Under the pieces are notes generated by a model. The model saw only the letters and a list, made by a program, of their open reading frames with translations. It made no database searches and was not told the DNA's origin. The translations under genes were made by a program, and so were the position numbers. Shown here piece after piece: positions 3,099-34,336 of a DNA stretch of 64,000 nt. How positions within the stretch are numbered: the stretch's first letter is position 1; each line of letters begins with the position of its first letter. Source of the DNA: Planctomycetota bacterium (GTDB lineage: Bacteria > Planctomycetota > UBA1135 > JAKEFM01); NCBI GenBank assembly GCA_022616055.1, contig JAKEFM010000212.1, positions 18,228-82,227 of the forward strand, read 5' to 3'.

Positions 3099-3899
3099 CT
3101 AGCGCAGGGCCTGGATCCTCATCCGGCTGAACTTCACCTTCGTACCCTTGTCGACGACGATGCCGACCGAGCCCTTGCGGGAGGCCGTCCAGGGCATCTC
3201 CGTCTCGAAGGGCGGCCGGTCCCCTACCTTCAGGACGAACCGGTTCCCGATGCAGGAGATCTCACAGCCGGAGGGCGTCCCCGGCGTGAGTTGGCCCGGG
3301 GCGACGGCGAGGGAGACGCTCATGGCCCGCCGATCCGCATGCGGCCCGAGCCGGACGAAGAGCTCGACCTTGCCCGACTCGAAGGTGACCTCGAAGTCGA
3401 GGACGAAATCGCGCCATTTCTCCCGATCCCCGGTCGAGAGGATCCCCTTCTTCCCCGTCCCCTCGGCGGGCCCCACGATCCGGAGGGTCCCCCTCTCGAT
3501 TCGCCACGAGAAACCCTCGACCGAGTTGGCGATCCAGTCCCTCACCCTGTCGGGCGTGAGGAGATCGATCCACGGGACGGTCGCGATCGTCTCCGGGGTG
3601 AACACCGCCGCGCACAGCGCGTTGCTCTCGTCCAGGATGCCCCGGTACTGGCGCTCGAAGAACTCCTGGTCTTCCTTGACCCGCGAGACGAAGGAGCGCT
3701 CGAAGAGCCGGTAGACCTCCTCCTCCGCCTGCTTGTAGCGGTCGAGCGCCTCCCTCCCCTTGTCGGGGTTCGCGGCCAGGGCCTTCGCCTCCGCGTGCAG
3801 CCGACTAGCCTGGTCGCGATCGGGCTCGTTCGGCGCCTGGACGGCGGCGCCGCCGACGATCAGCAGAGGGACGCTCAGGGGAAGGACGGCAGCCCGCAT
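3099..3899 (-). CDS. Secreted DUF1080-like (3-keto-disaccharide hydrolase / LamG-fold) protein
   Basis: Start is placed at MRAAVLPLSVPLLIVGGAAVQA (signal peptide, ATG 3897-3899). The C-terminal W..G.L...G...L.T...Y.DF.L..E pattern (FSWRIERGTLRIVGP ... WRDFVLDFEV) resembles DUF1080. Confidence 0.75.
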   Translation of the reverse strand: MRAAVLPLSVPLLIVGGAAVQAPNEPDRDQASRLHAEAKALAANPDKGREALDRYKQAEEEVYRLFERSFVSRVKEDQEFFERQYRGILDESNALCAAVFTPETIATVPWIDLLTPDRVRDWIANSVEGFSWRIERGTLRIVGPAEGTGKKGILSTGDREKWRDFVLDFEVTFESGKVELFVRLGPHADRRAMSVSLAVAPGQLTPGTPSGCEISCIGNRFVLKVGDRPPFETEMPWTASRKGSVGIVVDKGTKVKFSRMRIQALR

Positions 3900-7849: not shown

Positions 7850-9265
7850 TCAGACGGCCGCGAGGTTTTCCGGGGGGGTCGGTTTCCTTCCCTGCTCGAA
7901 CCCGAACTTCTCGATCCGGTATCGAATCTGGTCCCGATTCAGGCCGAGGAAGCGCGCCGCCTGGGACCGGTTCCCCTTGGCGCGCTCCAGGGCCTGGCGG
8001 ACGAGGTCGCGCTCGAGCTGCTCGAGGACGAGCCCGTCCGGGGGAAGGAGGAAGATGGAGGCGGGGAGGCCGTGGCGCCTCTCGTCCGCCCCCCCGACGA
8101 TCTCCCGGGGGAGATCGGCCCGGCGGACGATCCCTCCCTCCGCGAGGAGCACCGCCCGCTCGACGGCGTTGCGCAGCTCCCGGACGTTGCCCGGCCAGGG
8201 GTAGCGCTGGAAGGCCTGGAGCGCCGCGGGCTCGATCTCGGAGACGTCCTTCCGGAACTCCTTCCGGAAGTGCGCCAGGAACATGCGGGCGAGGGGCTGG
8301 AGGTCCTCGGGGCGTTCCCGCAGCGGGGGGATGAGGACCGGGATGACCTTGAGCCGGAAATAGAGGTCGCGGCGGAAGCGGCCCGCCTCCACTTCGGCGT
8401 CGAGGTCCCGGTTCGTGGCGGCGACGATGCGCACGGAGACCCTCAGGTCGCGCGTCCCCCCGACGCGCCGGAAGGACTTCTCCTCCAGGACCCGGAGGAG
8501 CTTCGCCTGCAGGCCGGGGGAGAGGTCTCCGATCTCGTCGAGGAAGAGGGTCCCGCCGTCCGCCAGCTCGAAGAGCCCGCGCTTCTGGACCTTCGCGTCG
8601 GTGAACGCTCCCCGCTCGTGTCCGAACAGCTCGGACTCGAGGAGGGTCTCGGGGATGGCGGTGCAGGTGACGTTCAGGAACGGGCGCTCGGCCGTCCGCC
8701 CTTCGTGGTGGAGGGCGCGGGCGGCGAGGCCCTTTCCCACTCCCGACTCCCCGAGGAGGAGGATCGTCGTCGCCTCGCTCTGGGCGACCCGCCGAAGGAG
8801 GTGGACCACCTCCCGCATCGCGGCGCTCTCGGCGACGAGGTTGGGGAGGCCGAACTGCCGCTTCTCCTCCTCCTGCCGGCGGGCGAGCTGGCGCCGGAGG
8901 GAGTAGGCCTCGAGGGCGCGCTCGACCCGGACCAGGAGGTCGTCGGCCTCGTAGGGCTTGGCAAGGTAGTCGTGCGCCCCCTCCCGGACGGCGGCGACGG
9001 CCCCCGCCAGGCTCGCGTGCGCGGTCAGGAGGAGGACCGGCACGTCGGGCGAGAGGGCCCGGATCGACTTGAGCACCTCGAGCCCCGTCCGATCCGGGAG
9101 CCGGTAGTCGAGGATGACCAGGTCCGGGGTCTCCCGGGAGAAGGCCTCGAGCGCGGCCCCGCCCTCGTCCGCCTCCTCGACCTCGTAGCCCGCCTCCTCC
9201 AGGCTCGCCTTCAGGGACCACCGGATCATCTTCTCGTCGTCGACGATCAGGATTCGGGCAGGCAT
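7850..9265 (-). CDS. Sigma-54-dependent response regulator (NtrC/AtoC family: REC + AAA+ + Fis-type HTH)
   Basis: ILIVDDE...DLVILDYRLPD (REC). GESGVGKG (Walker A), GAFTDA/ESELFGHERGAFT (GAFTGA-like sigma-54 contact loop), GTLFLDEIG and WPGNVRELRN (AAA+). C-terminal NRSQAARFLGLNRDQIRYRI (HTH). Confidence 0.95.
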   Translation of the reverse strand: MPARILIVDDEKMIRWSLKASLEEAGYEVEEADEGGAALEAFSRETPDLVILDYRLPDRTGLEVLKSIRALSPDVPVLLLTAHASLAGAVAAVREGAHDYLAKPYEADDLLVRVERALEAYSLRRQLARRQEEEKRQFGLPNLVAESAAMREVVHLLRRVAQSEATTILLLGESGVGKGLAARALHHEGRTAERPFLNVTCTAIPETLLESELFGHERGAFTDAKVQKRGLFELADGGTLFLDEIGDLSPGLQAKLLRVLEEKSFRRVGGTRDLRVSVRIVAATNRDLDAEVEAGRFRRDLYFRLKVIPVLIPPLRERPEDLQPLARMFLAHFRKEFRKDVSEIEPAALQAFQRYPWPGNVRELRNAVERAVLLAEGGIVRRADLPREIVGGADERRHGLPASIFLLPPDGLVLEQLERDLVRQALERAKGNRSQAARFLGLNRDQIRYRIEKFGFEQGRKPTPPENLAAV

Positions 9266-9310
9266 GCTGGTGGGTTGGGGGTGCCGGTCACGCGGGACAT
9301 TCCACCACCC

Positions 9311-9332
9311 CGCCGGGGAATATTCCCCGGCG
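9311..9332. promoter_or_regulatory. Perfect 22-bp palindrome in the divergent regulator/kinase intergenic region
   Basis: cgccggggaat|attccccggcg, 11+11 with no mismatch, 46 bp upstream of the regulator ATG (9265). A second TTCC-N-GGAA element (ctttcctggaaag) lies at about 9394-9406. Confidence 0.6.
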
Positions 9333-9448
9333 TTCCGCTGCCCGAGCCCCCGCCGGGAGGCCTTCCTGCATACCGCGGGCCTGCCGTTGGCTTTCCTGGA
9401 AAGGGCCGTACAGTGCCGAAGCGGTCACGGGATCGGAGCGAGATACAC

Positions 9449-11779
9449 GTGAAGCAGCGGGTCCTCGCCCCCTCCCCTGGAAAGAGCGACGCGGAGGTTC
9501 TCGCCCGTCTCTCCGGGGCGGTGGAGCCCCATCTCGGGTCGATCGCGGAAGGGTGCGCCGACGTTCTCCTCGGGCGCGAGGAGGCGAGGCGGTACTTCGC
9601 CGGGGAAGAGGGGAAGTGCCTCGACCGGACCGAGGAGCTCCTCGCCTGGCTCCGGGGGCTCTTCTCCGTCGAGGTCGAGTCGACCCGCCGGGCGCGGTGG
9701 GAGCGATTCGGCGGAGTCTGCTTCCGGATGGGGCTTCCCGTCCAGGTCGTCGTGGCCTGCGTCGGGGCCGCCCGCCAGCGGCTGGCCGAGATCCTGCGCC
9801 GCCGTCTCTCGCGGAGCCGGGACCTGCTCGCACGCTCCGTGAACGCCCTCCACCGCACGCTCGACACCGAGCTGGGCGGGATCCTCGAGGCCCACGAGGA
9901 GCACCGGCTCCGGGGGGTCGAGGAGAATCGACGACTGCTCGCGGAGGCGGAGATCGACCGCACGCGCAGGGAGGCCGAGGAGCGGTTCTGGCTGCTGGCG
10001 GAGGCGACGACCCTCGGGATCTACGACTGGGACATCCCGAAGGACCTCCTCTGGTGGAGCGAGGGGTTCTACCGCCTGTTCGGCTACGAGCCGGGGACCC
10101 GGACGTCGAACATCGCGTGGTGGAAGAAGGGGATCCACCCGAAGGACTACCCCCGCGTGGTCGCGGGGATCGAGAAGGCGATCGAGGAGAAGGCGCGGTT
10201 CTGGACCGACGAGTACCGGTTCGCCCGGGGGAACGGGACCTACGCCTGGGTCCTCGACCGCGGCTACTTCATCCGCGACGAGGCGGGGCGGGCCGCCCGG
10301 ATGGTGGGGGCGATGATCGACCTCTCGGACCGCCGCGAGTCCGAGGAGCGGTTCCGCCTCCTCGCGGAGGCGACGAACGACACCGTCTGGGACTGGGACC
10401 TCGTCAAGGACGTCGTCTGGTGGGGGGAGGGATTCCGGCGGATGTTCGGCGATGCCCCGGGGACGAGCGGCTGCATCAACAACTGGTGGACGCTGAGGAT
10501 CCATCCGGAGGACCGGGAGCGGGTCTCGGCGGGGCTCAAGGCCGTGGTCGAGAAGAGCCTCCCGTTCTGGACGGAAGAGTACCGGTTCCGGCGCGCGAAC
10601 GGGACCTACGCCGACATCCTCGACCGGGGGTACACGATCCTCGACGACTCCGGGAAGCCCGTCCGGATGGTCGGCGCGATGATGGACGTCACGGACCGGC
10701 GTCAGGCCGAGCAGGAGATCCGGCGTCAGAGGGACCTCGCCGAGCGGATCCTCCGCAGCAGCCGCGAGGCGATCGTCGTCGTCGACCGGGAGCTCCGGTT
10801 CACGCTCTGGAACCCCGCCGCGGAACGGATGTCGGGCCTGAAGGCGGAGGAGGTCCTCGACCGGAATGTCTTCGAGGTCTTCCCGTTCATCCGGGAGATG
10901 GGGGACGAGGGGGGCCTCTTCCGCGCTCTCGCGGGGGAGCCGGTGTCGCTGCGCCGCCGCCGCTTCCACATCCCCGCGACCGGGCGGGGCGGCCTCTACG
11001 ACGCGCAGCTGAGCCCGCTGCGGGACGAGAAGGGCGAGATCGTGGGGGTCCTCTCCGTCTCCCGGGACGTCACCGAGGAGGAGCGGATGAAGGAGACCCT
11101 CGGGCGCGCGGAGCGCTTCTCCGCGCTCGGCGAGGTCGCGGCGATGATCGCCCACGAGGTCCGCAACCCCCTCACGGCGACGAAGGGGGTGCTCCAGGTC
11201 CTGCTGCGGCGGCTCCCCCAGGAGTCCGCCGATCGCGCGGCGGTGTCGGAGACGGTGGAGCGGCTCGACGCCCTCGCCCGTCTCATCACCGACCTCCTCT
11301 CGTTCTCCCGGCCGATCCACGTCCAGGTCCGGCCGCTCGACGCGCGGGAGGCCCTGCGCACGATCGCGGAGGGTCTCGGCCGGGAGGAGGGGTTCCGGCT
11401 CCTCTCCGTCCGGTTCGAGGACCCGGGGGACGTCGGCCGGATCGCCGCCGACCCCGCCCTCCTCTGGATGGCCTTCCTCCACCTCGCCCGCAACGCCGTC
11501 GAGGCGGCGAACGGCCCCGCCGAGATCACCCTCCGGGCGGAGCGCGTCGGGGAACGGATGGCGCTCCGGATCCTCGACCGGGGCCCCGGCATCGATCCGG
11601 CCGTCGGCTCGAAGCTCTTCTCCCCCTTCTTCTCCACGAAGCCCGGCGGGACCGGCATCGGACTCGCCATGGTGAAGCGGATCGCGGAGGCCTTCGGCGG
11701 CGAGGTCGAGGCCTCGAACCGGCCGGGAGGCGGGGCGGTCTTCACCCTCTACCTCCCGCTCGCGGAGGCCGAAGCGTAG
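9449..11779 (+). CDS. Soluble sensor histidine kinase: globin-coupled-sensor-like N-domain + 3 PAS + HisKA + HATPase_c
   Basis: GTG 9449 is the first in-frame start after junk in track ORF 7193..11779. H-box MIAHEVRNPL, N-box LARNAVEA, G-boxes DRGPGI and GGTGIGLAMV. PAS_3-like repeats are present (WW.EGF.R.FG). Confidence 0.9.
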   Translation: MKQRVLAPSPGKSDAEVLARLSGAVEPHLGSIAEGCADVLLGREEARRYFAGEEGKCLDRTEELLAWLRGLFSVEVESTRRARWERFGGVCFRMGLPVQVVVACVGAARQRLAEILRRRLSRSRDLLARSVNALHRTLDTELGGILEAHEEHRLRGVEENRRLLAEAEIDRTRREAEERFWLLAEATTLGIYDWDIPKDLLWWSEGFYRLFGYEPGTRTSNIAWWKKGIHPKDYPRVVAGIEKAIEEKARFWTDEYRFARGNGTYAWVLDRGYFIRDEAGRAARMVGAMIDLSDRRESEERFRLLAEATNDTVWDWDLVKDVVWWGEGFRRMFGDAPGTSGCINNWWTLRIHPEDRERVSAGLKAVVEKSLPFWTEEYRFRRANGTYADILDRGYTILDDSGKPVRMVGAMMDVTDRRQAEQEIRRQRDLAERILRSSREAIVVVDRELRFTLWNPAAERMSGLKAEEVLDRNVFEVFPFIREMGDEGGLFRALAGEPVSLRRRRFHIPATGRGGLYDAQLSPLRDEKGEIVGVLSVSRDVTEEERMKETLGRAERFSALGEVAAMIAHEVRNPLTATKGVLQVLLRRLPQESADRAAVSETVERLDALARLITDLLSFSRPIHVQVRPLDAREALRTIAEGLGREEGFRLLSVRFEDPGDVGRIAADPALLWMAFLHLARNAVEAANGPAEITLRAERVGERMALRILDRGPGIDPAVGSKLFSPFFSTKPGGTGIGLAMVKRIAEAFGGEVEASNRPGGGAVFTLYLPLAEAEA
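9980..10711 (+). repeat. Tandem duplication of a PAS module inside the kinase gene (2 x 366 nt)
   Basis: ERFWLLAEATTLGIYDWDIPKDLLWWSEGFYRLFGYEPG... aligns with ERFRLLAEATNDTVWDWDLVKDVVWWGEGFRRMFGDAPG..., with a period of exactly 122 codons. Confidence 0.7.
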
Positions 11780-27069: not shown

Positions 27070-27804
27070 ATGGAACGGCGGAGCCAGTATCGAATCGAGC
27101 TCGGGGAAAAGAGCACCGTCGAGGTGAGCATCCTCGTCAAGAACCGGCCGCTCATGGTCGGCCGCCTCCACGACGTCTCCGCCGAGGGGGCGGGGGTGGT
27201 GCTCCCGAGCCTCGCGAGCGCCCCTCTCGCCGTCGGCGAGGAGGCCGAGCTCGTCTTCGTCGGCAAGACGATCGTCAAGCCGCTGCGGGTCTCCGCGGTC
27301 CTCGTCCACCACCGGATCGAGGGGAGGGGGGCGGAGGCGGTCCAGCACTTCGGATTCGACTTCACGAACAAGGACGGGTTCGACGAGCTCCTGATCGCCC
27401 AGGACCTCCACGTCCTCTTCAACCGCCGCAAGACCCGGCGGGTCGAGCCGGACCCGGAGGAGCCGGTCGAGGCCCTCCTCGAGGACGAGGTCCGCGGCAA
27501 GTCGGGATCGGCGCGCGTCGTCGACCTCTCGACGTCCGGGGTCGGGCTCCACGTCACCTCCAAGGTCGACTCCCGGTTCGCCGAGGTGGAGAAGGTCCGC
27601 GTCGCGCTCCGGCTCCCGGGGATGACCGAGGACCTCCGGCTCGAGGGGAACGTCCGTCACCGCTCGGAGACGACCGGGGGAGGGATGCGGTACGGCATCG
27701 AGTTCGACCGGGTGCGGACGCCCCGTTTCGCCGAGCAGCAGGCGGTCCTCGTGCGGTACGTCGCCGGCTGCCTGCGCCAGCTCCTCAAGACCGGCGCGAA
27801 GTAG
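27070..27804 (+). CDS. Tandem PilZ-domain protein (putative c-di-GMP receptor)
   Basis: Two complete PilZ signatures: RRSQYR...DVSAEGAG and RRKTRR...DLSTSGVG. SD AGGAG lies 5 nt upstream of the ATG. Confidence 0.87.
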   Translation: MERRSQYRIELGEKSTVEVSILVKNRPLMVGRLHDVSAEGAGVVLPSLASAPLAVGEEAELVFVGKTIVKPLRVSAVLVHHRIEGRGAEAVQHFGFDFTNKDGFDELLIAQDLHVLFNRRKTRRVEPDPEEPVEALLEDEVRGKSGSARVVDLSTSGVGLHVTSKVDSRFAEVEKVRVALRLPGMTEDLRLEGNVRHRSETTGGGMRYGIEFDRVRTPRFAEQQAVLVRYVAGCLRQLLKTGAK

Positions 27805-28115
27805 CGCGCCTCGCGACGCTTCCCGGCCCGCCCGGGCCGCGGGTAGGATCGCGCCCGCTCTCCCGCCCCCGCGACGCGCGAGCGGGAGGATGCCATGATG
27901 CGACGCCCCGCACCGTTTTCAGCGACGTGGGCCTCCTCCCCGCGGCTCCGGCGCAGGCCCCTCGGGCGGCGAAGGCGAGCCGCGGGGACTTCGCGCGCGG
28001 CGACCCCCTCCTCGATGCGGCCCTCGCCCGGCGGGGTGAGTGGCCGGACGACGCCTCCCCCCCGGGCGCGGCTTCGCTTCACGAGGTCGACGGAGTAGCC
28101 GGGCGAGCCCGGATC

Positions 28116-30377
28116 ATGCGGATCACGTTCCGACTGATCGTCTCCCTCGTCGTCGTGGTGGCCGTGGTCGCGGCCACCTCGGCGTGGATCCACGTCGGCC
28201 AGGACCGCGCCCAGCGGCAGGACGAGATCGAGAGGCGATCTCGCCTCCTCGCGCTCACCCTCCAGGAGGTCGTCCAGCCCCTGGTGTCGGAGGAGACCTC
28301 CGAGCGGCTCCGGGGAATCGTCGAGAAGTACGCGAACCGGGAGCGACTGGCCGGCGTCGCGGTCTACGACAGGGAGGGACGCCTCCTCGCGGCGACCGCC
28401 GCCCTCTCCGGGGTGTTCGCCGAGCCCCCCGCGGCCGTCCGAGAGGCCCTGTCGAGATCCGTGGACGGGAGCGCGTTCGTCGAGATGGGGGGGAAGGAGG
28501 TCCACCTCTACGCCCTGCCCCTGACGGACGGGGGCGGGGTCGCCCACGCGCTCCTGATCGTCCACGATGCCTCCTTCATCCAGGCCCAGTTGCGGCAGAT
28601 CTGGCTGCACGCCTTCGTCAGGGTCCTCGCCCAATCCGCGCTCATCACCCTCGTCACGCTCCTCGTCATCCGGTGGAGCGTCTTCGGCCCGATCGCCCGG
28701 ATGGCGGAGTGGATGCGCGCGCTCCGCTCGGAGGGTGAGGTGCGCCCCCCGGAAGTCCCCAAGGGGGACCTCTTCGCGCCCATCGCCCGGGAGGTGACCA
28801 CCTTTGCCCGGCATCTGTCGGCGGCCAAGGCCGCGGCCGAGAGGGAGGCTGGACGCCCGCGGAAGGATGAGCCGGCCGGGACCCCGGAATGGCTCAAGGA
28901 GCATGTCCGCGCCCGCCTCGGGGACAAGCCGCTCTTCGTCGTCTCCAACCGGGAGCCCTACATGCACCTGCGGCGCGGCAGGGACGTGGAGGTCATCGTC
29001 CCTGCGGGAGGGCTCGTGACCGCGCTGGAGCCCGTGCTTCGGGCCTGCGGGGGGACGTGGATCGCGCATGGGGCCGGCGACGCCGACTTCGAGGTGACCG
29101 ACGGGAAGGGCCGGCTCCAGGTCCCCCCCGGCGACCCCCGCTACACCCTCCGGCGCGTCCCCCTCTCCAAGGAGGAGGAGCAGGGGTACTACTACGGCTT
29201 CTCCAACGAGGGGCTCTGGCCGCTCTGCCACCTCGCCCACACGCGCCCCATCTTCCGGGCCGACGATTGGGCCCAATACCAGCGGGTCAGCGAGAAGTTC
29301 GCGACGGCGGTCCTCGAGGAGGTGGAGGGGCTCGAGGATCCCTTCGTCCTCATCCAGGACTACCACTTCGCCCTCCTCCCGCGCCTCCTCAAGGAGCGCC
29401 GTCCCGAGATCCGGGCCGCCCTCTTCTGGCACATCCCCTGGCCCAATCCGGAGGCCTTCGGGATCTGTCCCTGGCAGCGCGAGCTGCTGCAGGGGATGCT
29501 CGGGGCCGATCTCGTCGGGTTCCAGACCCAGTCCCACTGCAACAACTTCCTCGACACGGTCGACGCCGCGCTCGAGGCGCGCGTGGACTGGGAGCGCTTC
29601 GGGGTCTCGAAGGAGGGCCACCTCACCCTGGTCAAGCCCTTCCCGATCAGCGTGGCGTTCCCCCCCGTCGCGCGGGATCCCTACCCGACGCCTCCCCGCG
29701 CGAAGGACCGCGACACGCTCCTGAAGGAGCTCGGGGTCCGCGCGAGGTTCCTCGGCGTGGGGGTGGACCGGCTCGACTACACGAAGGGGGTCCTCGAGCG
29801 CTTCCGGGCGATCGAGCGCTTCCTCGAGAAGCACCCCCGCTACCAGGGGGAGTTCGTCTTCGTCCAGATCGGCGCGCCGAGCCGGACCTACATCAAGCGC
29901 TACCACGACTTCCTCGCCGAGGTGGAGGCCGAGGCGCAGCGCATCAACTGGCGCTTCAAGAGGAAAGACTGGCGCCCGATCGTCTACCTCGAGAAGCACC
30001 ACAGCCACGAGGAGATCCTCCCGTACTATCTCGCCGCGGACCTCTGCATGATCACCTCCCTCCACGACGGGATGAACCTCGTCGCCAAGGAGTTCGTCGC
30101 CTCGAGGGAGGACGGGGAGGGGGTCCTCGTCCTGAGCCAGTTCGCCGGCGCCTCCCGGGAGCTGCGGGACGCCCTGATCGTCAATCCCTACAACGCCGAG
30201 CAGGGGGCGGAGGCGATCCGGTACGCGCTCGAGATGGACCCCGAGGAACGGCGGGCCCGGATGAAGGCGATGAGGGAGACGCTTCGCGAGAACAACGTCT
30301 ACCGCTGGGCCGGGAGCCTGATCGAGGAGCTCTCCCGCCTGCGGCTGCGCGAGCCCACTCCGGCGGGGAGCGAGTGA
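28116..30377 (+). CDS. otsA: Trehalose-6-phosphate synthase (GT20, OtsA-like) fused to an N-terminal 2-TM sensor and HAMP module
   Basis: The first ATG gives [25 protein letters not shown] (TM1). A ~165-aa loop, TM2 ([19 protein letters not shown]) and a HAMP-like region ([13 protein letters not shown]...[12 protein letters not shown]) follow. GT20 motifs are [49 protein letters not shown] and [13 protein letters not shown]. Confidence 0.9.
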
Positions 30378-30378
30378 G

Positions 30379-30777
30379 ATGCCCTCCGCCCTTTTCCTGT
30401 GCCGGCACAACGCCTGCCGGAGCCAGATCGCCGAGGCGGTCTGCCGGAGCCTCGCGCCGGCGTGGGACGTGGCGAGCGCGGGCTCGAGGCCGTCGGCGGA
30501 CGTGGACCGGAAGGCCGTGGAGATCCTCCGCCGCCACGGCCTCGCGATGGCGAGCCCTCGCCCCAAGGGCGTCCCCGGCCTCCCCTCCCGGCGCTGGGAC
30601 GTCGTCGTCTGCATGGGATGCGACGGCGCGGGCGCCGGCCTGCCGAGCGGTCGCTACGTCGAGTGGCCCGTCGAGGACCCCAGCGACGGGCCGATCGAGA
30701 TCTACGAGGCCCTCTTCCGGGAGTTGAGCGAGCGCGTCGGCGGGCTCGTCCGGGAAGCGGAGAGCCCCGCCCGATGA
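30379..30777 (+). CDS. Low-molecular-weight phosphotyrosine-phosphatase / ArsC-fold protein
   Basis: Starts 1 nt after the otsA stop. CX5R(S) P-loop LCRHNACRSQIAE. DPSDG (Asp loop)-like VEDPSDG. Only part of the Trx-coupled ArsC Cys triad is present. Confidence 0.82.
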   Translation: MPSALFLCRHNACRSQIAEAVCRSLAPAWDVASAGSRPSADVDRKAVEILRRHGLAMASPRPKGVPGLPSRRWDVVVCMGCDGAGAGLPSGRYVEWPVEDPSDGPIEIYEALFRELSERVGGLVREAESPAR

Positions 30778-31454
30778 TCCCGCGGGCGCGGGAGCCGTTC
30801 CGCTTCTTCGTCCGGACGAGCCTCACCCTCGTCACGGGGATCCGGGCCCGGACCGTCCGCGAGCTCGCCGGTCGCCTGAAGGAGGCCCCGGACTCCTGCG
30901 TCTACCAGCACACCCACCGGTTCCTCCAAGAGCACCAGTACCTCGTGCCGGAGCCGCCGAACGACTTCGCGTACTGGGCGACGGAGATGCTCCAGGACGA
31001 GGCGCTGGGCGAGCGCCTGGCCTCCGTCGACACGGTCCGGTTCCGCTCGCTCGGGGAGCTGCGGGCCGCCCTCCTCGGGGTCCTCGAGGACCATGTCCTC
31101 CGGAACGGGGAGGGCCGCCCCGCCCCCCCCGGGAAGGAGTTCCACTTCATGCGGGCCGTCCGCTTCTCCGTGCCGACCCGCGAGGTGGCCCACGATCTCG
31201 CCGAGTTCGGCGATTGCCTGCGCAGGGTGGGCCTCTCGAGCCTCTACCTCCACGTCTTCGAGGCCCGCCTTCGCCTCCCGAGCGTCGAGGCCAACGACTT
31301 CGCGGTCTGGTTCGAACGGGAGCTGGGGGAGGCCGAGCTCGCCCGGCGGGTGGGCCGCCTCGACCCCTACGCCCACACGCTCCAGGGCCTGCGCGCGCGT
31401 CTCCTCGCCATGGTGAGGAGCCGCCTCAAGGATCTCGGCCATGCCCCGGCTTGA
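30774..31454 (+). CDS. Conserved hypothetical protein, resembles the family I recall as DUF5752 (TreT-associated)
   Basis: ATGA overlap with the phosphatase gene. FFVRTSL...TGIRARTVRELAGRLKE...SCVYQHTHRFLQEH...NDFAYW. The family assignment is from memory only. Coding is supported by codon bias and coupling on both sides. Confidence 0.75.
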   Translation: MIPRAREPFRFFVRTSLTLVTGIRARTVRELAGRLKEAPDSCVYQHTHRFLQEHQYLVPEPPNDFAYWATEMLQDEALGERLASVDTVRFRSLGELRAALLGVLEDHVLRNGEGRPAPPGKEFHFMRAVRFSVPTREVAHDLAEFGDCLRRVGLSSLYLHVFEARLRLPSVEANDFAVWFERELGEAELARRVGRLDPYAHTLQGLRARLLAMVRSRLKDLGHAPA

Positions 31455-32661
31455 GGAGTACGCGCCGATCGTCGGCGCGGACACCCTCGAGGAGCTCTCC
31501 CTCGTCGCGGACCGCGTCAAGGGACGCTCCGTCCTCCACGTCAACTCGACGGCGGTGGGGGGGGGGGTCGCCGAGATCCTGCACCGCATGGTCCCCCTGT
31601 TCCGCGAGCTCGGCCTCGACGCCCACTGGGAGGTGATCCGCGGCGGCGAGGACTTCTACGCCGTGACGAAGAAATTCCACAACGCCCTCCACGGCCAGCC
31701 GGCGGAGTTCACGGCCCGGGACTTCCAGGTCTACGGCGAGACGACGGCGGAGAACTTGGCCCGCCTCGCGCTCGACGCGGAGGTCGTCTTCATCCACGAT
31801 CCGCAGCCCGCCGCCCTCGTGGAGAAGCGCGGGGCCAACCGCTGGGTGTGGCGCTGCCACATCGACCTCTCCCAGCCGGACGAGCGGGCCTGGGCCTTCC
31901 TCCGGCCGTACGTCGAGCGATACGACGCCTGCATCGTCTCGGCCCCCGGCTTCGCCCAGGAGCTCCCGATCCGCCAGGTGCTCATCGCCCCGTCCATCGA
32001 TCCCCTGAGCGAGAAGAACCGGGAGCTCTCCCCCGACGAGGTCCGCGGCGTCCTCGCGCGCCTCGGCATCCCGACGGACAAGCCCCTCGTCACGCAGGTC
32101 TCGCGCTTCGACCGCCTGAAGGATCCCCTCGGCGTGATCGAGGCGTTCCAGCGGGCCAAGCCCTACGTCGACGCGCGGCTCCTCCTGGTCGGGGGCTCGG
32201 CCGACGACGACCCGGAGGGGGCCCAGGTCCTCGCCGAGGTGCGGGACCGCGCCAGCGGCGAGCCGGACATCCTCGTCCACGAGCTCCCTCCCACGAGCCA
32301 CCTCGAGATCAACGCCATCCAGCGCGCCTCGACGGTCGTCCTCCAGAAGTCCCTGCGGGAGGGCTTCGGCCTCACGGTCGCCGAGGCCCTCTGGAAGGGG
32401 AAGCCGGTCATCGCGGGCGCGGTCGGCGGCATCCCCCTCCTGATCGCCCACAAGCACTCGGGGATCCTCGTCCACTCGGTAGAGGGGGCGGGCTACTGGA
32501 TGAGGCGCCTCCTCTCCGAGCCCGAGTTCGCCACCCGGCTCGGGGCCAACGGCCGGGAGCATGTCCGGCAGAATTTCCTCCTCACGCGCCACCTCCGGGA
32601 CTACCTCCTCCTCATCCTGTCCCTCGATCACCCCGGGGAGGACTTCGTCCCCCTGCGGTGA
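31441..32661 (+). CDS. treT: Trehalose glycosyltransferring synthase (TreT, GT4)
   Basis: Near-colinear by-eye match to my recollection of the archaeal TreT sequence: HVNSTAVGGGVAEILHRMVPL, FYAVTKKFHNALHG, HDPQPAAL, WRCHIDLS, PSIDPLSEKN, VSRFDRLKDP and SLREGFGLTVAEALWKGKPVI. It overlaps the upstream gene by 14 nt. Confidence 0.92.
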   Translation: MPRLEEYAPIVGADTLEELSLVADRVKGRSVLHVNSTAVGGGVAEILHRMVPLFRELGLDAHWEVIRGGEDFYAVTKKFHNALHGQPAEFTARDFQVYGETTAENLARLALDAEVVFIHDPQPAALVEKRGANRWVWRCHIDLSQPDERAWAFLRPYVERYDACIVSAPGFAQELPIRQVLIAPSIDPLSEKNRELSPDEVRGVLARLGIPTDKPLVTQVSRFDRLKDPLGVIEAFQRAKPYVDARLLLVGGSADDDPEGAQVLAEVRDRASGEPDILVHELPPTSHLEINAIQRASTVVLQKSLREGFGLTVAEALWKGKPVIAGAVGGIPLLIAHKHSGILVHSVEGAGYWMRRLLSEPEFATRLGANGREHVRQNFLLTRHLRDYLLLILSLDHPGEDFVPLR

Positions 32662-32704: not shown

Positions 32705-34336
32705 ATGAGCGCGCCCGCCGGGTCGGTGCTCTCCGCGGCCCTCGCCGCGATCCTCCTCGGCTCGCCCGGCGACGACACCGAGGACCTGCGACGGTTCCTC
32801 GCCAAGTACCGCACGGGCGCGGTCGACGCCTCGGTGATCGGCCGGCTCATCCCGAGCCTCGAGCCTCCCCCGGCCTTCCCCGCCTACGAGCGCGCGCGGG
32901 AGAAGCTGCGCCTGGACCCCACCCCGGCGAAGGCGGCCGTCCTCCTCGAGGCGGCGGTCCTCCGGCTCGCCGAGGATCCCGAGGAGGAGCTCGCCCGGTT
33001 CGCGGCCTGCCAGCCCTGGGTCGTGCGAAGGCGGGCGATCGACGATCTCTGCTCGTTCCAGGGGAAGGAGGCGATCCAGGACTGGGCCCTCGGTCTCCTC
33101 GCCGATCCCTCCCTCCCTCTCCCCGAGCGGCGCGTCCTCGTCGAGTGTCTGGGTGCGGCCCTCGCGCGCCGTCCCCGCCCGGCCGTCTACGCGGCCCTGC
33201 TCGAGGCCCTCGAGCACTCCGACGCGACGGTCCGGGGCCTGGCGGCCGAGGGGCTCGGCCCCGCGCTCGAGCGCGCCGACCTCCTCCGGTTCCTCCAGCG
33301 CCTCTTCGACGGCGACGCCGGGGTCCGATTGCGCGCGGTCCGCGGGGTCCGGGCCGCCTTCCCTCGCCTGCAGGGGAGCCTCGCGGAGAAGGAGGAGCGC
33401 CGGGCCCTCGAGCTCCTCGGCTCGAGGCTCTCCGATCCCGATGCCCACGTCCGCCTCCTCCTGGCGGAGATCCTCCGGGAGTTCCCCCGTCCCCTCCTCA
33501 TCCCCTTCCTCGTGCGGGCCCTCGAGCAGGAGGAGAAGCGCGCGGGGACGGAGGAGGCGCGACTCCGATTCCGCCTCGCGATCGAGGACCTCCTCTACCG
33601 GCTCACCGGTCTCGGCTCCCCGCCGTGGCCCGCGCCCCGCTGGCGCCAGTGGCTCGACGCCCGCAAGCCCGAGGAGGTGGCGAAGCTCCCGACGCCGACG
33701 GCCGTCCCCGGCTCCATCCACCGGACCGCCGCCACCTACTTCGGGCGGGAGGTGCGATCCGACCGCGTCGTCTTCGTGATGGACTTCTCCGGGAGCATGC
33801 GCCGGACGACCGGCAACCTCGAGCACGACCGCGGCGAGGGGAAGCGCGACCCGCGCGCCCGGATCGACGTCGCGCGCCGGGAGCTCGCCGCGTACCTTCA
33901 CCCCCTCGACGAGACGCACCGCTTCAACGTCGTCGTCTTCGCCGTGGGCGCGCTCGCCGCCTTCGACGAGCTCGCGCCGGCGAGCGCCGAGAACAAGCGC
34001 CGCGCGATGGCGTTCGTGGACCAGGTTCCGGTCAGCGGCTCGACCGACCTGTTCTCGGGGATCCTCCGGGGACTGCGCTGCGGCGGGCTCGACGCCGGGA
34101 GCCGGTTCGGGACGAGGGCGGACACCGTCTTCCTCCTGAGCGACGGGGTCCCGACGGCCGGGGCGGTGACCGACCCGGGCGACATCGCGCGCCTCGTGAC
34201 GAAGATGAACGAGGGCTCCGGCCTCACGATCAACGTCGTCGACCTCGGCGTCCGGCACGAGGCCTTCCAGAAGCACCTGCGCGAGCTCGCCGCGCGCAAC
34301 GGCGGCGAGTACATCCGGGCCGAGTCCGCGCAGTAG
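32705..34336 (+). CDS. Secreted HEAT-repeat + von Willebrand factor A (VWA) domain protein
   Basis: Start MSAPAGSVLSAALAAILLG. HEAT-like repeats (DATVRGLAAEGLG, DAGVRLRAVRGV, DAHVRLLLAEIL). VWA MIDAS VMDFSGSM ... SGSTDL ... LLSDGVPT. Confidence 0.85.
   Translation: MSAPAGSVLSAALAAILLGSPGDDTEDLRRFLAKYRTGAVDASVIGRLIPSLEPPPAFPAYERAREKLRLDPTPAKAAVLLEAAVLRLAEDPEEELARFAACQPWVVRRRAIDDLCSFQGKEAIQDWALGLLADPSLPLPERRVLVECLGAALARRPRPAVYAALLEALEHSDATVRGLAAEGLGPALERADLLRFLQRLFDGDAGVRLRAVRGVRAAFPRLQGSLAEKEERRALELLGSRLSDPDAHVRLLLAEILREFPRPLLIPFLVRALEQEEKRAGTEEARLRFRLAIEDLLYRLTGLGSPPWPAPRWRQWLDARKPEEVAKLPTPTAVPGSIHRTAATYFGREVRSDRVVFVMDFSGSMRRTTGNLEHDRGEGKRDPRARIDVARRELAAYLHPLDETHRFNVVVFAVGALAAFDELAPASAENKRRAMAFVDQVPVSGSTDLFSGILRGLRCGGLDAGSRFGTRADTVFLLSDGVPTAGAVTDPGDIARLVTKMNEGSGLTINVVDLGVRHEAFQKHLRELAARNGGEYIRAESAQ

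Follow-up and report, generated by a model that had tools for sequence, protein, structure and literature searches.

We describe four packed plus-strand genes at the centre of a 64,000-nucleotide (nt) stretch of DNA from a Planctomycetota bacterium (assembly GCA_022616055.1, contig JAKEFM010000212.1, positions 18,228 to 82,227; hereafter the window). They encode a predicted trehalose-6-phosphate (T6P) synthase that carries an N-terminal receptor module (sensor-OtsA), a small protein (LMWPc) with the fold shared by low-molecular-weight protein tyrosine phosphatases (LMW-PTPs) and arsenate reductases (ArsC), a DUF5752 protein, and a GT4 glycosyltransferase of the TreT type. The four genes are a conserved unit and not the accident of one genome, and they represent a real, apparently undescribed variant of the trehalose biosynthesis operons that is more general than an earlier note on this DNA had supposed. 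With moderate confidence, we read the locus as one version of a widespread, two-route bacterial trehalose stress operon built from two separable sub-modules. Making trehalose is central to how cells respond to stress and, accumulated T6P being toxic, is a drug target in pathogens.

Conservation of the operon

A DUF5752 alignment was scanned against one genome per species, and the best 80 loci were taken from at least 560 genomes with a relative; as these loci are the most window-like ones, counts made on them are biased and the loci are phylogenetically non-independent. Domains of the window proteins were called with Pfam and NCBIfam models, and neighbouring genes in the 80 loci were found by tblastn. 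In all 80 loci a same-strand TreT gene comes after DUF5752, and in 64 OtsA lies upstream on that strand. The other 16 comprise ten loci that are cut within 1.5 kb upstream, two with OtsA elsewhere and four without OtsA. Independent genomes from at least eight phyla, mostly uncultured, show the gene order, and related loci occur in groups including Elusimicrobiota, Omnitrophota, Planctomycetota, Nitrospirota, Chloroflexota/Dehalococcoidia, Binatia, Krumholzibacteriota and Lindowbacteria.

The earlier note had described five consecutive plus-strand genes, the four named above and a tandem PilZ gene ahead of them, and had staked its proposal on conservation of the gene order beyond this genome and on the trehalose affiliation of both glycosyltransferases. 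All five genes are present where they were placed, and each of the domain assignments PilZ, GT20, LMWPc, DUF5752 and TreT is matched by Pfam. Read directly, the junctions are a 1-nt gap between OtsA and LMWPc (TGA-g-ATG), a 4-nt ATGA overlap between LMWPc and DUF5752, and a 14-nt overlap between DUF5752 and TreT. The order is conserved outside the window genome, as the counts above indicate, and hidden Markov models place both the GT20 and the GT4 protein in trehalose subfamilies.

The unit can also come apart. The OtsA-LMWPc pair stands without DUF5752 and TreT at loci L081, L085 and L090, and the DUF5752-TreT pair stands without OtsA at L017, L034 and L175. Since both sub-modules are found alone, an obligate four-protein complex is not required and is unlikely.

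The phosphatase slot

In most loci a gene of about 260 amino acids (aa) lies between OtsA and DUF5752. Ten of these gap proteins were sampled: nine of the nine slot proteins belong to Pfam Trehalose_PPase, that is, OtsB, and the tenth is the product of an MscS gene inserted in L079. Over the 80 loci, OtsB occupies the slot in 57, follows just after TreT in five and lies elsewhere in the locus in one (63 in total), and LMWPc occupies the slot in eight; none holds both and nine hold neither, an exclusivity with a Fisher p of 8e-7, which takes no account of common descent. A search with a profile of 61 OtsB sequences, which recovered its positive control in 8/8 cases at E <= 1e-60, detected no OtsB at E <= 1, either across the 64-kb window or in the 12 LMWPc-type loci that it covered. 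With tblastn likewise finding none, an OtsB hidden in the window or in those loci was rejected.

The LMWPc protein has no HAD fold and no homology to Trehalose_PPase (PF02358). It belongs to a small subfamily of some 29 clusters (46% identity or more), beyond which scores fall sharply to generic ArsC/LMWPc proteins. Upstream sequence is available for 16 distinct loci, and in each of them the subfamily member begins 1-8 nt after a 753-aa sensor-OtsA. Four of 80 loci from a metagenome scan for the subfamily belonged to it, and the remaining 76 were used as an outgroup: OtsA lies near none of these 76 LMWPc genes, nor does it accompany the more distant member P0148 (49% identity). No LMWPc-OtsA fusion was found among 43 homologues. 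In a neighbour-joining tree of OtsA, the LMWPc-linked enzymes all fall in one subclade, where they are interleaved with OtsB-linked ones, which is the pattern expected of interchangeable parts.

Because LMWPc takes the OtsB slot and is mutually exclusive with OtsB, we infer that it is a T6P phosphatase; as a candidate for this step, it has probably displaced the non-orthologous OtsB in the window's clade. The claim is that it would work like OtsB, not that it is homologous to it. Invariant in the subfamily are P-loop residues C8, H10, N11, C13, R14 and S15 and the pair D100-P101, with the window protein reading C8-x-H-N-A-C-R14-S in the P-loop. In LMW protein tyrosine phosphatases, aromatic residues after the DP motif (DPYY) wall the phosphotyrosine pocket. 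The subfamily has DPxDGP(M/L/I) and lacks such aromatics.

A serious alternative, if an unlikely one, is that LMWPc is not the phosphatase of the pathway, being instead an arsenate reductase or a Tyr/Arg protein phosphatase that regulates OtsA, and that T6P is handled by an unlinked OtsB or a promiscuous phosphatase. The top NCBIfam and Protein Data Bank (PDB) matches are indeed arsenate reductases: the subfamily profile finds 3T38 best (101 bits) and 1Y1L next (83 bits), against about 54 bits for LMW-PTPs. The distal ArsC cysteine pair (GCGDxCP) is kept in 13 of 23 members, and the OtsB scans covered the window and the loci, which leaves room for an OtsB elsewhere in genomes of the LMWPc type. 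However, the window protein reaches only 51 bits on an NCBIfam ArsC model with a cut-off of 158, and 35 bits on another with a cut-off of 174. Ten of the 23, among them the window protein and P0147 from a four-gene cluster of identical make-up, lack at least one of the two distal cysteines. The window protein reads GCDGAGAG at this point, and the three-cysteine ArsC cascade is incomplete for want of the second distal cysteine. Nor do ars genes adjoin in the five subfamily contexts with a Pfam listing, and the invariable position directly behind OtsA, with exact positional replacement of OtsB and zero co-occurrence, likewise speaks against this alternative. It is further disfavoured by the missing DPYY-type aromatics and by the lack of a conserved kinase in the cluster. 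Single-cysteine, thiol-dependent ArsC enzymes do exist, and arsenate reduction by a single-cysteine, small-thiol mechanism stays compatible with the sequence. The pattern nevertheless fits an ArsC-derived scaffold now selected for P-loop chemistry alone, i.e. phosphocysteine hydrolysis.

Downstream of LMWPc, DUF5752 and TreT follow in L083, L089 and L093, and no same-strand gene follows in L090. In L081 LMWPc is followed by a 467-aa gene, which was considered as a module member and rejected, as it encodes an unrelated secreted protein. In L085, a DUF1646 membrane protein gene (8425-9621) comes after OtsA-LMWPc and overlaps the LMWPc stop, and is itself followed by genes for a Cache-HAMP histidine kinase and a sigma-54 activator. 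L090 also bears a truncated, 53-aa N-terminal fragment of the LMWPc subfamily (3110-3268), which is 74% identical to the window protein and is terminated by stop codons; the fragment adjoins an ArsR/MerT/MerA-like cluster, and the intact OtsA-LMWPc pair lies 4.5 kb further downstream. At L009, from an Elusimicrobia metagenome-assembled genome (MAG), a stop-free frame (7908-9992) runs from the OtsA C-terminus through OtsB and is possibly a fused T6P synthase-phosphatase (TPS-TPP).

The receptor-type OtsA

The catalytic domain of the window OtsA scores well above the Pfam gathering cut-off for Glyco_transf_20 of 32.5 bits (388.5 bits). Among NCBIfam models, the fused enzyme TPSP scores 480 bits, OtsA (TIGR02400) 427 bits and the glucosylglycerol-phosphate synthase GgpS 293 bits, and as the trehalose models beat the GgpS model, the protein is predicted to be a T6P synthase. 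OtsA of M. thermoresistibile (5JIJ) matches at 272 bits, the motifs DYH, RLDYTKG and DGMNLVAKE are intact, and the orthologues in related loci adjoin true OtsB genes.

Ahead of the catalytic domain lie a first transmembrane helix (TM1, about aa 5-25), a periplasmic PDC/single-Cache domain (about 26-164), a second transmembrane helix (TM2, about 165-187) and HAMP-like helices (about 188-245). An AlphaFold2 (AF2) model of the N-terminus has a mean predicted local distance difference test score (pLDDT) of 79.5 overall and about 90 in the sensor part, and over the N-terminal ~270 aa displays TM1, an alpha/beta PDC domain, TM2 and two long helices. In Foldseek, all 300 modelled residues align with the full-length WalK model 9a5d_A (TMq 0.63, 301 columns), and the sensor part also matches the sensor domains of WalK, CitA, DcuS and DctB. 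Weak Pfam matches among 28 OtsA homologues were to SMP_2 (16), sCache_3_2 (10) and HAMP (3, best E 0.014).

The receptor module is conserved along with the cluster across phyla, and the model and its structural matches support the receptor-type OtsA proposed in the earlier note as an architecture. The transmembrane-Cache-transmembrane layout is borne out. The note's label of GT20-HAMP needs correction: Pfam calls no HAMP domain in the window protein, and a HAMP-like segment is suggested by the two helices after TM2 that align with the WalK model and by the weak matches in 3 of the 28 homologues. The module may gate OtsA. When the window is compared with the close relative L174, the periplasmic sensor domain (window 28191-28607) is the fastest-evolving stretch, with 72-92% nt identity, compared with about 98% in the PilZ gene and 82-98% in the non-coding spacer; this fast divergence may reflect a changing ligand or cue specificity.

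DUF5752 and TreT

The DUF5752 protein is a member of the OrfY family. Its AF2 model (pLDDT 86.6) consists of two tandem repeats, each a long beta-hairpin with a helical bundle, and hhalign detects homology between the two halves with a probability of 98.4%. The protein has a single structural relative in the PDB, namely 4CSO, the OrfY protein of Thermoproteus tenax, which is matched by Foldseek at E 9e-14 and by hmmsearch at E 1.5e-30. No published function was found for OrfY or DUF5752. In T. tenax, orfY reportedly adjoins treT (Kouril et al. 2008).

When 1.84 billion representative proteins were searched with a profile, 1138 family members were recovered, and among the best 150 of these, 20 long forms were surveyed for fusions. 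Fifteen have an MscS beta-domain followed by DUF5752, one has Trehalose_PPase, one has a maltokinase cap and three have no second Pfam domain. In the MscS fusions, DUF5752 follows the beta-domain at the place where the usual MscS C-terminal domain sits, and Pfam detects no such domain there. The Dehalococcoidia/Chloroflexota version of the operon consists of an OtsA without sensor (490 aa), OtsB, MscS-DUF5752 (457 aa) and TreT; an example of the fusion is L037 9281-10654, and others occur in L019, L028, L032, L035, L055, L061, L069, L075, L067 and L077. Sensor-OtsA goes with plain DUF5752 and sensor-less OtsA with MscS-DUF5752; both long forms occur together in no locus, and neither occurs in three. 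This complementary distribution means that some membrane-embedded element is nearly always present. The proteins P0299 (745 aa), P0316 (713 aa) and P0301 (526 aa) have a C-terminal DUF5752 behind 300-500 N-terminal residues with no Pfam domain or only a maltokinase N-terminal cap, and are possible further trehalose-related fusions.

As DUF5752 is fused to the cytoplasmic side of MscS channels in Chloroflexota, it can be tied to osmotic homeostasis. In the 4CSO deposition OrfY bears the label of a transcription factor, against which the MscS fusions argue. A DNA-binding factor is also unlikely on other grounds: Foldseek found no similarity to a DNA-binding fold, and the family has a median isoelectric point of 6.4. 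We suggest that DUF5752 is a partner or regulatory domain of TreT, tied to osmotic homeostasis, and not a plain transcription factor.

The window GT4 protein matches the Thermoproteus structure 6ZJ4 over residues 4-395 (434.6 bits) and the Pyrococcus horikoshii TreT 2X6Q at 349 bits. 6ZJ4, listed as a trehalose phosphorylase/synthase, is the TreT of Thermoproteus uzoniensis (PMC11046441). Some GT4 enzymes are T6P synthases, as in Sulfolobus (PMC7688234). Since the match to TreT structures is full-length, a TreT-type trehalose synthase is the better call for the predicted activity of the window protein.

TreT could also run in the opposite sense, turning trehalose and nucleoside diphosphate (NDP) into NDP-glucose and glucose, so that the operon would pair synthesis with re-mobilisation and DUF5752 would set the direction. 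Thermococcales TreT enzymes are reversible, and the degradative direction has reportedly been proposed for Thermococcus litoralis. Two synthetic routes in one operon look redundant, and one DUF5752 fusion bears a maltokinase cap, a domain of a trehalose-consuming pathway. Nonetheless, such a recycling role appears improbable: the best match is to the Thermoproteus type of TreT, the T. tenax pathway has been called unidirectional (PMC3634074), DUF5752-TreT pairs are found without OtsA, and the cluster contains neither a transporter nor a trehalase.

The upstream PilZ gene and flanking sequence

The coordinates of the genes and their parts are collected in Table 1.

Table 1. Genes and gene parts in the central region of the window
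Feature	Position	Strand	Basis
Tandem PilZ protein, 244 aa	27070-27804	+	Pfam PilZ 67.8 bits, two stretches
PilZ-OtsA spacer, 311 nt	27805-28115	+	Read from sequence
Sensor-OtsA fusion	28116-30377 (ATG start; open reading frame opens at GTG 27927)	+	Pfam Glyco_transf_20
OtsA N-terminal receptor module	28116-28850	+	AF2 model and Foldseek
OtsA GT20 catalytic domain	28926-30377	+	Glyco_transf_20 388.5 bits
LMWPc (LMW-PTP/ArsC-fold) protein, 132 aa	30379-30777	+	Pfam LMWPc 64 bits
DUF5752/OrfY-family protein, 226 aa	30774-31454	+	Pfam DUF5752 (PF19027) 190.6 bits
TreT-type GT4, 406 aa	31441-32661	+	TreT_GT1 188 bits and Glycos_transf_1 71 bits
HEAT-repeat/VWA protein, signal-peptide-like N-terminus	32706-34336, 44 nt past TreT	+	Pfam HEAT_2, VWA_3

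The PilZ protein was seen in the earlier note as a cyclic di-GMP (c-di-GMP) receptor of the trehalose module. The gene itself is as described, on the same strand and with RxxxR and DxSxxG motifs in both PilZ domains as read from the translation, but the tie to the module is not supported, as PilZ is found in none of the 80 related loci. At L174 (89% nt identity to the window) PilZ is kept upstream with a spacer of 316 nt. At L173 (85% nt identity) a Peptidase_S41 gene lies 70 nt upstream of OtsA in its place, and by alignment and sliding identity the homology to the window starts at 27971, 145 nt ahead of the OtsA start. The adjacency of PilZ is local synteny, PilZ lies outside the conserved module, and the c-di-GMP link should be dropped. 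As the proximal spacer is conserved even without PilZ, the trehalose genes are probably under their own control region, for which 27971-28115 is the probable site, possibly as a promoter or operator.

A c-di-GMP-gated multi-protein synthase, in which PilZ would relay to a complex of OtsA, phosphatase, DUF5752 and TreT and in which TreT would activate the GT20 enzyme as the T. tenax glycosyltransferase does, can point to the canonical PilZ motifs, to the retention of gene and spacer in L174, to the tight translational coupling of the last four genes and to the GT4 partner required by T. tenax TPSP (PMC3634074), yet it is very improbable given the absence of PilZ from related loci, the different upstream gene of L173, the independent occurrence of both sub-modules, and an activator in T. 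tenax that is a PimA-like GT4, not TreT, and acts on a fused TPS-TPP.

A regulatory RNA in the 311-nt spacer was considered and rejected: Rfam gave only chance microRNA hits (E <= 1), and the fold z-score was 0.11 against shuffled sequences. No sigma-70-like promoter was seen in the spacer, a result that is uninformative at this GC content. The same holds for a promoter and terminator scan against shuffled sequence, which is uninformative at 72% GC and returned no promoter-like site and two terminator-like sites, both inside genes and equal to the shuffle expectation. The HEAT/VWA gene was likewise rejected as a sixth member, since it lies downstream only in the 92%-identical L089 and in none of the 80 related loci.

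At the window's GC content of 72%, long spurious open reading frames abound in all frames. The real genes are overlapped by antisense frames, on the minus strand at 27657-30614 and in other frames, that reach 985 and 1049 aa; these are artefacts of base composition and no genes. The recorded gene calls for this contig (GCA_973789155.1, CCZJXZ010000084.1; a MAG labelled Planctomycetes) agree with those made here.

Proposed function and significance

In the two-route operon that we favour, sub-module A would begin with sensor-OtsA, which would make T6P from NDP-glucose and glucose-6-phosphate and would presumably be switched by its receptor part on an envelope or osmotic cue. The product of the next gene would dephosphorylate T6P, as the HAD enzyme OtsB in most lineages and as an ArsC-derived enzyme of LMW-PTP fold in the window's clade. 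For the latter, Cys8 would form the phospho-enzyme intermediate, Arg14 would bind phosphate and Asp100 would serve as general acid. Sub-module B would consist of DUF5752 and TreT, translationally coupled, with TreT making trehalose directly from NDP-glucose and glucose and DUF5752 acting as its partner or regulatory subunit.

Several points weigh against this reading. The presence of two trehalose routes in one operon is unexplained. The window OtsA does not reach the TIGR02400 equivalog cut-off of 565 bits, and TreT scores 368.7 bits on the NCBIfam model TreT_Thcocales, which is named for Thermococcales and has a cut-off of 775. To these must be added the bias of the 80 loci, the missing HAMP call, the transcription-factor label of 4CSO, the reach of the OtsB search, and, for LMWPc, the arsenate reductase as best structural match, the cysteine pair kept in most of the subfamily and the existence of single-cysteine ArsC enzymes.

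More tentatively still, and with well under even confidence when all parts are taken jointly, we propose that an ArsC-derived T6P phosphatase has repeatedly displaced OtsB, that OtsA is gated by its Cache/HAMP module, and that DUF5752 is a cytoplasmic sensor of osmolytes or crowding which controls TreT and has been fused to MscS. T. tenax homologues apart, no part of the operon has been characterised before, and our literature search found nothing relevant on DUF5752, OrfY, 4CSO, HAMP-OtsA or an operon of this kind. The locus therefore offers three testable novelties, namely the candidate T6P phosphatase of ArsC fold, the receptor-enzyme OtsA, and the function of OrfY/DUF5752. If true, a second, unrelated fold for the T6P phosphatase step would change the annotation of the pathway, genomes scored as lacking OtsB might have a complete pathway, and an arsenate reductase scaffold would have been turned (back) into a hydrolytic phosphatase. 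With a receptor-type OtsA, a metabolic enzyme would be switched directly across the membrane; this form of OtsA occurs in eight or more phyla, most of them uncultured, among them Omnitrophota, Elusimicrobiota, Planctomycetota and Nitrospirota. DUF5752/OrfY, for which there is a crystal structure and no known role, gains a testable function and a link to mechanosensitive channels, and its presence with both TreT and MscS would hard-wire solute release to solute synthesis.

Comparison with known systems

The precedent on which the earlier note had leaned, a T. tenax TPS/TPP enzyme in need of a co-encoded GT4 protein, is real: in the msc-gt-tpsp operon a PimA-like GT4 activates the fused TPSP (Zaparty et al. 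2013, PMC3634074). Taken together, the related clusters hold the same kinds of parts (GT20, HAD phosphatase, GT4 and MscS channel), and a role in osmotic stress is suggested in both. In contrast to T. tenax, synthase and phosphatase are separate here, the GT4 is of the TreT type, the conserved unit of the window has no MscS gene and its phosphatase has no HAD domain. A multi-protein trehalose complex in the window could be suggested only by analogy with T. tenax. In some Omnitrophota and Elusimicrobiota, stand-alone MscS genes lie in or beside the trehalose cluster (L079 7804-8850, L012 15262-16170), an echo of the T. tenax operon.

The window TreT and DUF5752 are homologous to Thermoproteus TreT (6ZJ4) and T. 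tenax OrfY (4CSO), respectively, but here the two genes stand in a bacterial operon together with those for OtsA and a phosphatase. With otsBA of the Escherichia coli type, the window shares a GT20 synthase with intact motifs and an adjacent phosphatase gene, which in most related clusters is a true OtsB; it differs in the ~270-aa receptor module at the N-terminus of OtsA, in a phosphatase of LMW-PTP/ArsC rather than HAD fold, and in the joining of the pair to DUF5752-TreT. Thioredoxin-coupled ArsC enzymes (the Corynebacterium glutamicum type, 3T38, and Staphylococcus aureus pI258) have the fold, the P-loop CxHNAxRS and the DP motif in common with the window LMWPc, which in turn lacks the third cysteine, falls below the model cut-offs and stands in an OtsA context.

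Our literature search returned no description of a HAMP-linked T6P synthase, and the closest likeness of this part is to sensors of the WalK/CitA/DcuS type. Over its N-terminal 300 aa, OtsA can be superposed on the WalK model and the Cache domains of such sensors, but their output is here a glycosyltransferase, and not a histidine kinase, chemoreceptor or cyclase.

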